The notes under the pieces are model-generated. The model made no database searches, was not told where the DNA came from, and saw only the letters and a list, made by a program, of their open reading frames with translations. Below are positions 21,879 to 24,513 of a DNA stretch of 24,513 bases, piece by piece. Source of the DNA: a virus; the UHGV virus genome UHGV-0864142; one strand, 5' to 3'. Both the position numbers and the translations under genes were made by a program. The number at the start of each line of letters is the position of its first letter. Position 1 is the first letter of the stretch.

Positions 21879-22595
21879 ATGGAAAATAAAAAATCACTGA
21901 CGACAGAACAGCTCGAAGACGCTAAGCGGCTTAAGGCTTTGTATGAGTCAAAAAAGAAAGAATTGGGAATAACCCAATACTCAATCGCTGATGAACTGGG
22001 TATCACCCAAGGAGCGGTAGGGCATTATCTTAATGGCAGAAATGCGCTAAACGTTGAGGTTGCATCTGGTTTTGCACGATTATTGCAAGTCTCAATTGCT
22101 GATTTTAGCCAGTCAATTGCTGCCAAGGTTGCAGAACAGGCAGAAAGCCTTAAGAGCGATGCCAACGTAAGGTATGCAGGGGAATACAGAGCAGGAAAGA
22201 GGTATCCGGTGTTAAGCAGTATCCAGGCTGGCTCGTGGTGTGAAGCATGCGAACCATACACCATTAAAGACATAGATGTTTGGCTTGAGTCTGACGCGCA
22301 TATTCAAGGTAATGCGTTTTGGCTTAAAGTGGAAGGTGATTCAATGACGGCACCGGTTGGGTTAAGCATTCCAGAGGGAACATTCGTTCTTTTCGATACC
22401 GGAAGGGAGGCGATCAACGGCAGCTTGGTCATAGCAAAACTTTCTGACTCTAACGAAGCAACATTCAAGAAGCTGATAATCGACGGCGGAAATAAATACC
22501 TCAAGGGACTTAACCCTGCATGGCCTCTCGTGCCAATCAATGGAAACTGCAAGATTATAGGCGTTGCAATTGAGACAAAACTAAGGCTGGTTTGA
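21879..22595 (+). CDS. cI: CI-type prophage repressor (HTH plus LexA-like S24 autopeptidase domain), 238 aa
   Basis: Ends resemble lambda CI as recalled (KK.LT.EQLEDA.RLKA.YE.KK.ELG; FWL.VEG.SMTAP; FKKLI.D). Ala-Gly cleavage site (SIQAGSW), catalytic Ser in GDSM and Lys in FKKL. Recognition helix region differs, implying distinct immunity. Confidence 0.92.
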   Translation: MENKKSLTTEQLEDAKRLKALYESKKKELGITQYSIADELGITQGAVGHYLNGRNALNVEVASGFARLLQVSIADFSQSIAAKVAEQAESLKSDANVRYAGEYRAGKRYPVLSSIQAGSWCEACEPYTIKDIDVWLESDAHIQGNAFWLKVEGDSMTAPVGLSIPEGTFVLFDTGREAINGSLVIAKLSDSNEATFKKLIIDGGNKYLKGLNPAWPLVPINGNCKIIGVAIETKLRLV

Positions 22596-22612
22596 TCACG
22601 CAAGGGGCGCTT

Positions 22613-22981
22613 ATGGTTGGAACCGCTATAGCAAGCTTTTTTGGGATGTTGGCAATCTCGACAATTTACGGCTTAGCGCATGCTTTTATTGCGAAATCTC
22701 TATCAGAAAAAATAAGCCAGGCTTGGGCGCATAGATCAGCTCGTTTCATGATTCTGGTGATCATGGCAATACAAGGGATATCTGCATTTTTCCTCTATGG
22801 ATCAAGCTTATACCTATTGTATCAAGGCGCGACATTTACGCCTTACACCAGTGATTACGGAACTCTATACGATGGTAGTGAAGACATCTCTATGGCTTGG
22901 ATTGTCTTTGGTTTATCTATGGCCGTGTCTGTTGTAGCAGACATCATTAAGGTAATTCTCGTCTTAACCTTCGCTGACTAA
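22613..22981 (+). CDS. Three-TM membrane protein (122 aa) in the rex position downstream of cI
   Basis: ATG 22613 with AAGGGG 5 nt upstream, 18 nt after the cI stop. Three long hydrophobic segments. No similarity to RexA/RexB that I recognise. Confidence 0.65.
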   Translation: MVGTAIASFFGMLAISTIYGLAHAFIAKSLSEKISQAWAHRSARFMILVIMAIQGISAFFLYGSSLYLLYQGATFTPYTSDYGTLYDGSEDISMAWIVFGLSMAVSVVADIIKVILVLTFAD

Positions 22982-23068: not shown

Positions 23069-23155
23069 AATATCCTTTGTATTCATTTGCTTATCATTAT
23101 TTCACCAAAAATAAATACCTTGGGTATTTACACAATAAAATACCTACAGTATTCT
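23069..23155 (+). promoter_or_regulatory. Left operator region OL with promoter PL (-35 TTTACA 23127-23132, -10 TATTCT 23150-23155)
   Basis: Perfect AATAC-N5-GTATT sites at 23114-23128 and 23139-23153, same half-sites as OR. Weaker third site AATAT-N5-GTATT at 23069-23083. Promoter hexamers overlap the operators. Confidence 0.6.
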
Positions 23156-23200: not shown

Positions 23201-23242
23201 GGCTCTTTAACATTGATGGGATTGTCCCGCCGAAATGCGGGA
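23201..23242 (+). promoter_or_regulatory. nutL: boxA (GGCTCTTTAACA) and boxB hairpin (UCCCGC-CGAAAU-GCGGGA)
   Basis: Same boxA core and identical boxB loop/stem as nutR, with the same 12-nt boxA-boxB spacing. Lies between PL and N. Confidence 0.65.
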
Positions 23243-23349: not shown

Positions 23350-23649
23350 ATGACAGTAGTCATTACATATCTGGCTGACGATAACGCCAGAAATCGCCGC
23401 AGAGCACGCAGACAGGCTCAACGTGAACAGGCAATGCAAGAGCAGCGACTGGCGCGAAAAATTGCGCTAAAGCTCTCTGGTTGCGTCAGAGCAGACAAAG
23501 CAGCATCACTCGGAAGCCTTCGCTGCAAGAAGGCAGAAGAAGTCGAGCGTAAACAGAACCGTATTTACTACCGCAAGCCACGCAGTGAAATGGGGGTGAC
23601 TTGTGTTGGTCGCCAGAAAATGAAATTAGGCAGCAAACCACTTATTTGA
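23350..23649 (+). CDS. N: N-type transcription antiterminator (99 aa)
   Basis: Arg-rich N-terminal motif (NARNRRRARRQAQREQ). C-terminal ...RKQNRIYYRKPRSEMGVTCVGRQKMKLGSKPLI resembles the lambda N C-terminus (...RKNQRTWYSKPGERGITCSGRQKIKGKSIPLI) as recalled. GGAGG SD. Confidence 0.85.
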   Translation: MTVVITYLADDNARNRRRARRQAQREQAMQEQRLARKIALKLSGCVRADKAASLGSLRCKKAEEVERKQNRIYYRKPRSEMGVTCVGRQKMKLGSKPLI

Positions 23650-23657
23650 GGTGAGAT

Positions 23658-23744
23658 ATGGAAGAAGAATTTGAAGAGTTCGAAGAGCATCCTCAGGATG
23701 TGATGGAACAATACCAGGACTATCCGTATGACTACGACTATTGA
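23658..23744 (+). CDS. Very acidic, aromatic-rich micro-ORF (28 aa) directly after N
   Basis: Not in the supplied track. GAGGTGAGA SD then ATG 23658; translates MEEEFEEFEEHPQDVMEQYQDYPYDYDY. Stop overlaps the next ORF by 17 nt. Confidence 0.35.
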   Translation: MEEEFEEFEEHPQDVMEQYQDYPYDYDY

Positions 23745-23928
23745 TAAAAATCAATGGTGTGGACAATTCAAGCGATGCAATGGATGCAAGCTGCAATCGG
23801 AATGCATGGTTAAGCCTGAAGAAATGTTTCCTGTAATGGAAGATGGGAAATATGTCGATAAATGGGCAATACGAACGACGGCAATGATTGCCAGAGAACT
23901 TGGTAAACAGAATAACAAGGCTGCCTGA
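23728..23928 (+). CDS. Small Cys-rich protein (66 aa), possible zinc ribbon
   Basis: ATG 23728; cysteines C11, C17, C20, C26 (WCGQFKRCNGCKLQSEC). Family not recognised. Confidence 0.5.
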   Translation: MTTTIDKNQWCGQFKRCNGCKLQSECMVKPEEMFPVMEDGKYVDKWAIRTTAMIARELGKQNNKAA

Positions 23929-23968
23929 CGGTGGCCTTTATTTTTGGCATAAACAATATGGGGTAAAA

Positions 23969-24295
23969 ATGAAAGTTTTAATGGTTTATGAAAATGTTCC
24001 AGAGTCGACTGAAATCTATATTTTTGATGCCAATGAAGATGAAGTTAACGATTTGAAATTGTCTCACGGCAATTACACAAATGCTAATTGTGATGAAAGT
24101 ATCGAAAAAGCACTATCACGTGTTCTTGTCAGAATTAGTGATCCAGAACATTGTGATGATGATTGGCTTTCTTATTGTGGAGCGGTAAAAACTGATGCAG
24201 GAAAATGGAGTAAAAGTAAAGTTGATAACTCAACTCCAATCATTATGAAAGATAGCGATATTGAAATGGTAATAATAACCGGAATGATTATGTAG
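23969..24295 (+). CDS. Hypothetical acidic protein (108 aa) in an AT-rich segment
   Basis: ATG 23969 with GGGG 5 nt upstream; the track ORF starts earlier at a TTG. The region looks AT-rich by eye compared with the rest of the prophage. Confidence 0.55.
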   Translation: MKVLMVYENVPESTEIYIFDANEDEVNDLKLSHGNYTNANCDESIEKALSRVLVRISDPEHCDDDWLSYCGAVKTDAGKWSKSKVDNSTPIIMKDSDIEMVIITGMIM

Positions 24296-24401
24296 GCTGC
24301 GAATAAGCACTGTGTATTCATTCCAACGAGTGAATACACGGAGCAATGTCGCTCGTAACTAAACAGGAGCCGACTTGTTCTGATTATTGGAAATCTTCTT
24401 T

Positions 24402-24428
24402 GCCCTCTAATGTGAGGGCGATTTTTTT
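24402..24428 (+). terminator. Intrinsic terminator (GCCCTC-TAATGT-GAGGGC then GATTTTTTTG) within the PL operon
   Basis: Perfect 6-bp GC-rich stem followed by a T7 run, 12 nt before the next RBS and ATG. Expected to be bypassed by N antitermination. Confidence 0.65.
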
Positions 24429-24440
24429 GACGGAGGATAT

Positions 24441-24513
24441 ATGAGTGAAGTAACAGACTTAGTTGTTATTGAAAAAGCAAATGCAATGACTGTATTTCAG
24501 TCTGCCGACCAGA
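24441..24513 (+). CDS. Start of a further early-left-operon gene (first 24 codons; runs off window end)
   Basis: GGAGG SD at 24432-24436, ATG 24441, open to the window end (MSEVTDLVVIEKANAMTVFQSADQ...). Product unknown. Confidence 0.4.
   Translation, partial: MSEVTDLVVIEKANAMTVFQSADQ

Follow-up and report, generated by a model that had tools for sequence, protein, structure and literature searches.

What does a lambda-like prophage carry directly behind its antitermination gene N, and are the genes found there new or familiar? The question is raised by the last part of UHGV virus genome UHGV-0864142, analysed here as a window of 24,513 nucleotides (nt; the window always means this whole stretch), in which three small open reading frames (ORFs) of 28, 66 and 108 codons lie on the + strand at 23658-24295. 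The initial annotation described their products as an acidic peptide, a four-cysteine protein and an acidic protein, which is what they are, and its coordinates prove exact. It also assigned them to the part of the PL operon that directly follows N, a slot associated with anti-restriction cargo. Both points hold. The 99-amino-acid (aa) ORF upstream is an N-type antiterminator (phrog_271) and the 66-aa protein is Ral. The further statement that no product is recognisable does not survive, for ral and orf28 are lambda genes by exact sequence and only the 108-aa protein escapes recognition.

The whole window is a P22-like prophage of the HK620/CUS-3/Sf6 type. The interpretation put forward here, to which a probability of about 0.85 may be attached, is that 23658-24295 is the stretch nearest to N in the early PL operon of an Escherichia coli prophage of P22-like type, and that the orf28-ral module of lambda, all but unaltered, is followed there by a separate 350-bp cassette.

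Identity and action of Ral

The 66-aa product, encoded at 23728-23928 on the + strand, is Ral of lambda. Its sequence equals RAL_LAMBD exactly (100%), and it matches PF11058 (Antirestriction protein Ral) with an E-value (E) of 1.6e-48 and a score of 162.5 bits, the gathering cut-off being 25, residues 1-66 aligning with positions 1-66 of the profile; the match to phrog_1055 has E 1.7e-49, and the exact sequence is found on at least 1000 contigs. The protein has an isoelectric point (pI) of 8.8 and four cysteines with the spacing CX5CX2CX5C, a motif which, together with a WAIRTT segment, is present here and in the homologs from P22, BTP1, Providencia, Kluyvera and E2010. At the DNA level the orf28-ral segment is near-identical to lambda 34087-34357, and window positions 23600-23960, when aligned with an E. 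coli prophage and with lambda, phage 21 and CUS-3, show almost no variation from the Shine-Dalgarno (SD) sequence of orf28 to the hairpin that follows ral. Searches of the PDB for a solved structure of Ral or of the orf28 product, and of both proteins against the PADLOC-DB hidden Markov models at E<=1, gave no match.

Ral targets type IA restriction-modification enzymes (EcoKI and EcoBI) by way of HsdM's N-terminal domain, and turns M.EcoKI from a maintenance methyltransferase into one that acts de novo, unmodified phage DNA being methylated and not cut (PMC3874165, PMC12707154). In a CRISPR interference (CRISPRi) study of lambda (PMC10695390), ral was non-essential in general and conditionally essential when the host was hsd+. 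From its 100% identity to the lambda protein, the Ral encoded here would be expected to alleviate restriction by EcoKI and EcoBI.

With lambda ral (lambdap46) the gene shares the length of its protein, the four-cysteine motif, its place in the PL operon and the downstream hairpin. The two differ in what precedes them: here ral is separated from N by 8 nt and orf28, an arrangement shared with phage 21 and CUS-3, whereas in lambda the sieB region stands between N and ral. The same orf28-ral pair occurs in P22 and BTP1, the P22 Ral being 74% identical; in P22, however, ral is followed by orf78 and orf87 and not by the 108-aa gene.

Some further occurrences of ral deserve mention. In a Kluyvera prophage (L109, ~1630-1650) a 1-nt deletion splits the gene into 50-aa and 22-aa pieces, either a pseudogene or an assembly error, and the orf28-like ORF beside it is open. 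DNA 100% identical to lambda ral and orf28 is present in assemblies of Pseudoxanthomonas, Nocardioides, Shewanella, Paenibacillus, Bradyrhizobium and others (L087-L102, L105, L107, L108, L110), often on low-coverage contigs of ~48.5 kb, and is almost certainly lambda contamination. Because lambda DNA contaminates unrelated assemblies in this way, most Ral matches among genome contigs are uninformative on distribution. The record of 'Campylobacter phage CJLB-4' (MW057783.1; 48,361 bp) also holds a Ral 100% identical to that of lambda.

orf28 as a probable microprotein gene

The 28-aa ORF at 23658-23744 on the + strand, MEEEFEEFEEHPQDVMEQYQDYPYDYDY, encodes a tyrosine-rich and hyper-acidic peptide with 12 Asp or Glu residues and no Lys or Arg. 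By its sequence it is orf28 of lambda: the peptide equals lambda AAA96576.1 exactly and matches phrog_16060 with E 7e-19 over positions 1-28 of 28, and in the lambda reference orf28 (lambdap47, 34271-34357) overlaps ral (34087-34287) by 17 nt, the same geometry as here. Is so short a frame a gene in its own right? Comparison of the sequences suggests that orf28 is very probably a translated and selected microprotein gene, linked to ral usually but not obligatorily.

Fundamental to this view is the pattern of change within the frame. Among 42 distinct lambda-like copies, 10 of the 11 variants in the 70 nt outside the ral overlap fall at codon position 3. In Providencia, at ~76% DNA identity, an intact 28-codon ORF, MEEDIEEFDEHPDDDMRQYQDYPYEYDY, persists with the same ral overlap; in Kluyvera the frame has 23 codons, with a 9-nt deletion and an ATG to GTG change of start, the SD sequence GAGGTGA being kept and the insertions and deletions being multiples of three. 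P22 carries an identical, unannotated orf28, while BTP1 and a metagenomic prophage carry variants. The SD sequence is GAGGTGA or GAGGGGA at the Providencia, Kluyvera and BTP1 loci and GAGATGA in P22.

A measure of selection comes from 39 distinct 28-codon DNA versions (26 peptides), compared over the 23 codons outside the ral overlap. The ratio of non-synonymous to synonymous polymorphism (pN/pS) is 0.17 in the orf28 frame, similar to the 0.18 of ral, while the two alternative frames give 2.17 and 1.75. Variable sites are distributed 6/6/20 over the three codon positions of the 39 versions, and E6, E7, F8, H11, P12, D14, M16, Y19 and Y22 are invariant across the 26 peptide variants. The micro-ORF is present in ~76 of 81 divergent Ral loci, and has no annotation in those records that were examined for it (RefSeq, CUS-3, phage 21 and P22-pbi).

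Loci of other kinds were also seen. In an E2010-like siphovirus (L128) ral stands behind its own promoter-like region without orf28, and at L168 and L170 it overlaps, through ATGA, a different upstream ORF. A disrupted orf28 lies beside an intact ral at L209 (stop at codon 4), L159 (5' deletion) and L146 (truncation).

A proposed coupling of orf28 and ral

How might the translation of the two genes be related? The initial annotation noted that the micro-ORF overlaps the cysteine-rich gene and might be coupled to it. The overlap is real, at 17 nt, with the orf28 stop 14 nt past the ral AUG, and the coupling appears probable from the layout of the signals. The SD sequence of orf28, GAGGTGA (23648-23654, + strand, overlapping the N stop codon), is strong and that of ral is weak, consisting of AGGA 9 nt from the AUG, the ribosome-binding site as annotated in phage 21. 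In the minimum free energy fold of 23630-23790 a 9-bp stem pairs AUAUGGAAG, at the start of orf28, with CUAUCCGUAU, at the start of ral, and when four divergent sequences are folded to a consensus, this start-to-start stem is again the principal feature. The strong orf28 SD would load ribosomes whose translation would open the stem joining both starts, and ribosomes terminating orf28 would re-initiate at ral. Loci without orf28 also count for coupling, in that ral there overlaps another upstream ORF (ATGA) or has a promoter of its own. That orf28 translation melts the stem, and so couples ral translation to its own, may be regarded as evenly poised between true and false.

The same features could also be read as those of a leader ORF, one whose translation merely supplies ral with ribosomes or opens up its start region and whose peptide has no function, or even of a frame that is not translated. 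The 17-nt overlap with the weak ral SD, the stem joining both start regions, the Ral loci in which orf28 is replaced by another coupled ORF or by a separate promoter, and the non-essentiality of orf28 (PMC10695390) all agree with such an account. It is nevertheless unlikely in our judgement, as the peptide is under purifying selection as strong as that on Ral (pN/pS 0.17 vs 0.18), and a pure leader would tolerate amino-acid change, in contrast to the nine residues that are invariant across 26 peptides. Because its sequence is conserved, the orf28 peptide may also be functional in itself, perhaps in company with Ral, which is basic; that it acts together with Ral in addition to the coupling is speculative and rather doubtful.

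Several observations weigh against a coupled and functional orf28. The start-to-start stem is short and the z-score of the fold is -1.9, and within the stem there are one-sided changes only and no compensatory ones, in a sequence that is doubly constrained. Moreover, orf28 is absent or disrupted in ~5 of the Ral loci, and hence not obligatory for Ral, and in the CRISPRi study, where it is listed as a hypothetical gene, it was non-essential for lambda plaque formation (PMC10695390).

A separate cassette behind ral

The 108-aa gene at 23969-24295 on the + strand, a RefSeq 'hypothetical protein', belongs to a different unit. It lies in an AT-rich insertion of 350 bp, placed by BLAST breakpoints at 23957-24306 (+), which stands where lambda and phage 21 have 13 bp. 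On one side the insertion is flanked by a conserved 24-nt linker, GGCCTTTATTTTTGGCATAAACAA (23933-23956, again from BLAST breakpoints and with no strand to assign), which forms a cassette junction differing between prophages, and on the other by a conserved 121-bp segment (24307-24427) with a terminator hairpin. The composition of the region was also flagged at the outset as AT-rich and worth computing, and it does stand apart: 23658-24295 has a GC content of 0.370, where the window as a whole has 0.486, and falls within the lowest 0.2% of 638-nt windows, and the 108-aa ORF has a GC of 0.330 (lowest 0.1% of 327-nt windows) and a GC at third codon positions of 0.231. For orf28-ral the value is 0.417.

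The distribution of the gene separates it further from its neighbours. It is rare, with 16 carriers among 5426 complete E. coli genomes, as against more than 2200 that matched the wider N-ral query region, and with a single carrier among 80 IMG/VR contigs that bear Ral. Two other prophages have it behind N and a phrog_3054 or phrog_16670 gene, with the same linker and no orf28-ral, and an 82%-identical copy lies again between ral and cIII. The 108-aa protein is not functionally tied to Ral.

These data also bear on the picture given by the initial annotation, in which the region would hold a cluster of three novel and unrecognisable anti-restriction or anti-defence proteins, namely an acidic micro-mimic, a zinc-ribbon protein and an acidic DNA mimic. 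The post-N position, the AT-richness, the two acidic products and the truly unrecognisable 108-aa protein are all as such a cluster would have them; yet Ral and orf28 are exact lambda sequences, and the 108-aa gene is an independent cassette found also without them. A cluster of this kind has hardly any probability left.

As to expression, a promoter scan found no promoter-like site on the + strand between ral and the 108-aa ORF, and the gene is bracketed by terminator-like hairpins at 23917-23948 and 24400-24431. With no promoter of its own on that strand and two bracketing hairpins, the 108-aa protein is therefore most simply taken as an N-dependent early lytic product.

The N-to-cIII interval is a cassette hotspot, in this window and at L003, L112 and L114, where the 24-nt linker joins orf28-ral, phrog_3054, phrog_16670 and the 108-aa cassette; the alternative cargo at the linker is all uncharacterised in function. 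Phages RB16 and leE carry a homolog among small early genes between holin t and ndd, and a Burkholderia phage-plasmid has one in the early-left operon upstream of the ERF recombinase. In Klebsiella phage FBKp34 (L116, 3001-3333) the homolog lies directly upstream of a tellurite-resistance-like TerC/TerF-vWA/TerD/TelA cluster. A link to the anti-restriction islands of conjugative leading regions was considered and set aside, the plasmid search having returned a single record that is phage-plasmid-like.

Family and predicted fold of the 108-residue protein

What kind of protein does this cassette encode? It matches phrog_4658, a family listed with function unknown, at E 2.4e-38, residues 1-108 aligning with positions 2-109 of a 109-position profile. 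An exhaustive HMMER search of 1.84 billion cluster representatives gave 59 sequences at E<=1e-3, nearly all of 100-112 aa, and tblastn gave 100 phage records, all below 60% identity, from Klebsiella, Enterobacter, Cronobacter, Citrobacter and T4-like phages; relatives at 28-44% identity are all uncharacterised phage proteins. The protein has a pI of 4.36 and a net charge of -11, which is also the median of the phrog_4658 family (range -17 to +1). In a 35-sequence alignment, whose members gave no credible Pfam match, only P11, N38 and G105 are near-invariant, a pattern that gives no sign of a catalytic site, and judged by its sequence the protein would not fall into any recognisable enzyme class.

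With the same alignment AlphaFold2 returned a model with a predicted local distance difference test score of 96.8 and a predicted template modelling score of 0.88, in which a beta-hairpin at the N-terminus is followed by three helices and a strand at the C-terminus. A fold search of BFVD found uncharacterised phage proteins only. The closest in kind are RB16p265 and Klebsiella phage RCIP0047_00048, which are 28-35% identical over their full length, form single domains of ~108 aa and have the same predicted fold (BFVD, TM-score 0.86); these two belong to virulent myoviruses, whereas the gene here sits in a temperate P22-like prophage.

Several leads were discarded along the way. Weak matches to the TIGR02008 ferredoxin model (E 0.025), to HORMA and ferredoxin chains of the PDB (E 0.5-1) and to 3bs3 (E 0.16) were judged to be noise. 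The 210- and 163-aa 'members' of the 90% cluster of the protein are unrelated cysteine-rich proteins, a clustering artefact. An equation of RB16p265 with T4 Arn was rejected, as the model is without a fold match to solved structures in the PDB libraries searched. The supplements of an accessory-gene screen (PMC12373910) contained no matching sequence.

What the 108-residue protein might do

The reading that we tentatively favour, at somewhat less than even chances, is that the 108-aa protein acts as a stoichiometric binder of a host defence protein or nucleic-acid-handling protein, and so as a counter-defence or host-takeover factor. The more specific or different roles considered below (DNA mimic, nucleotide sponge, lysogen-expressed exclusion gene) each appear less likely than this.

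The initial annotation pointed to charge mimicry of the Ocr/ArdA kind. T7 Ocr, ArdA and T4 Arn are likewise small, acidic, early phage proteins in an anti-restriction setting, and a DNA-mimic anti-restriction protein of that kind would agree with the pI of 4.36, the net charge and family median of -11 and the adjoining ral gene, as well as with the location of the homolog in RB16-like phages, in a region which in T4 holds arn along with other takeover genes. This is, however, a resemblance and not membership: the 108-aa protein has no sequence or fold similarity to solved structures and a much lower charge density, fold prediction brought no mimic fold to light, and because the model matches no solved structure in the PDB libraries searched, membership of the Ocr, ArdA or Arn families is excluded. 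A DNA mimic of the same general kind is improbable. The gene might instead be a moron, expressed from the prophage for lysogenic conversion or superinfection exclusion, as its AT-richness, rarity, cassette-like nature and position between two terminator-like hairpins would allow. Yet it lies on the PL strand with no + strand promoter-like site between it and ral, neither the sequence nor the soluble alpha/beta model contains a signal peptide or transmembrane segment, and homologs are found in strictly virulent T4-like and Klebsiella phages, all of which leaves such a moron with a slight chance. Small size, phage-restricted occurrence and early expression, together with conserved positions of the His33, Tyr36, Asn38 and Trp80 type, would also fit a sponge for immune-signal nucleotides like Tad or Acb2, to which we attach a chance that is slighter still.

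Against the preferred role as a stoichiometric binder stand a number of results. No link to defence came from Pfam or NCBIfam, neither of which gave a match, from PADLOC (no match at E<=1), from a Foldseek comparison of the model with all PDB chains (nothing below E 0.29) or from the full-text literature, where accessions, the PHROG identifier and peptide strings retrieved nothing relevant. One family member, with a net charge of +1, is not acidic, and the acidity is moderate against that of Ocr-class mimics.

A wider proposal has a separate part for each of the two genes. The 108-aa protein would represent a new counter-defence or takeover class with a fold unseen among solved structures, its 350-bp cassette spreading between temperate phages of lambdoid or P22-like type and virulent ones (T4-like and Klebsiella phages). 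The orf28 peptide would be a functional partner of Ral and more than a leader product, for example by serving the basic, cysteine-rich Ral, or the action of Ral on HsdM, as an acidic cofactor or chaperone. As a whole this is possible but on balance unlikely.

What is known and what is added

In its core the locus holds nothing new and is what one would ordinarily meet in the PL operon of a lambdoid or P22-like phage. The lambda sequence has included both ral and orf28 from the early 1980s onwards, and their placement here is as in phage 21, CUS-3, Sf6 and P22. For four decades, though, orf28 has been a 'hypothetical protein', omitted by PGAP and by several phage annotations. What is added is quantitative evidence that purifying selection acts on its peptide as strongly as on Ral and that it is linked near-universally to ral, which raises the question of whether the classic activity of Ral needs or uses the orf28 microprotein. 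The 108-aa gene, for its part, becomes a candidate for counter-defence screening, being phage-restricted, horizontally mobile and, by its layout, probably early-expressed, with a confidently predicted fold that has no PDB match; its slot, from N to cIII, swaps cassettes at the conserved 24-nt linker.

Layout of the early left operon

In the last 2.6 kb of the window every ORF is on the + strand, as are the other features of this section, and the gene order cI - N - orf28 - ral matches that of phage 21 and CUS-3. A LexA/cI-type repressor is encoded at 21879-22595, and the start of the next ORF (22592-22981; phrog_6534), for a 129-aa multi-pass membrane protein, overlaps its stop codon. This protein has no Pfam match and no PADLOC match at E<=1, and occupying as it does the position of lambda rexA/rexB, it is a candidate lysogen-expressed exclusion gene.

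A PL-like sigma-70 promoter, TTTACA-17-TATTCT, was picked out by a consensus scan at 23127-23155, amid AT-rich operator-like inverted repeats. Its assignment is positional, resting on the interval between the cI-like repressor and N and on the phage 21 layout, the count of promoters in the region being not above chance. A putative nutL-like site follows at 23201-23242, with boxA GGCTCTTTAACA at 23201-23212 and a boxB-like hairpin, TCCCGC-CGAAAT-GCGGGA, at 23225-23242, recognised by comparison with the annotated boxA-L and nutL features of phage 21. The N-type antiterminator (23350-23649; 99 aa, with an Arg-rich N-terminus) matches phrog_271 with E 4.8e-37 and Pfam N_peptide with E 8e-4, which is under the gathering score; a near-identical 99-aa protein carries the N annotation in CUS-3.

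The hairpin and T-run at 23917-23948 overlap the ral stop codon and are conserved in lambda, phage 21 and CUS-3. The second, intrinsic-terminator-like hairpin, at 24400-24431 with a T7 run, is common to lambda and phage 21 and is annotated as a terminator in the latter. From this layout, induction or infection would cause PL to fire and transcribe the early operon, and N acting at nutL would allow RNA polymerase to read through both hairpins; with such N-mediated readthrough, orf28, ral and the 108-aa gene would therefore all be early lytic products. The next gene of the operon starts at 24442 and is cut by the window end at 24513. It encodes a 322-aa coiled-coil 'TolA-like' protein (phrog_1376), named in RefSeq either 'cell envelope biogenesis protein TolA' or 'coiled-coil domain-containing protein'.

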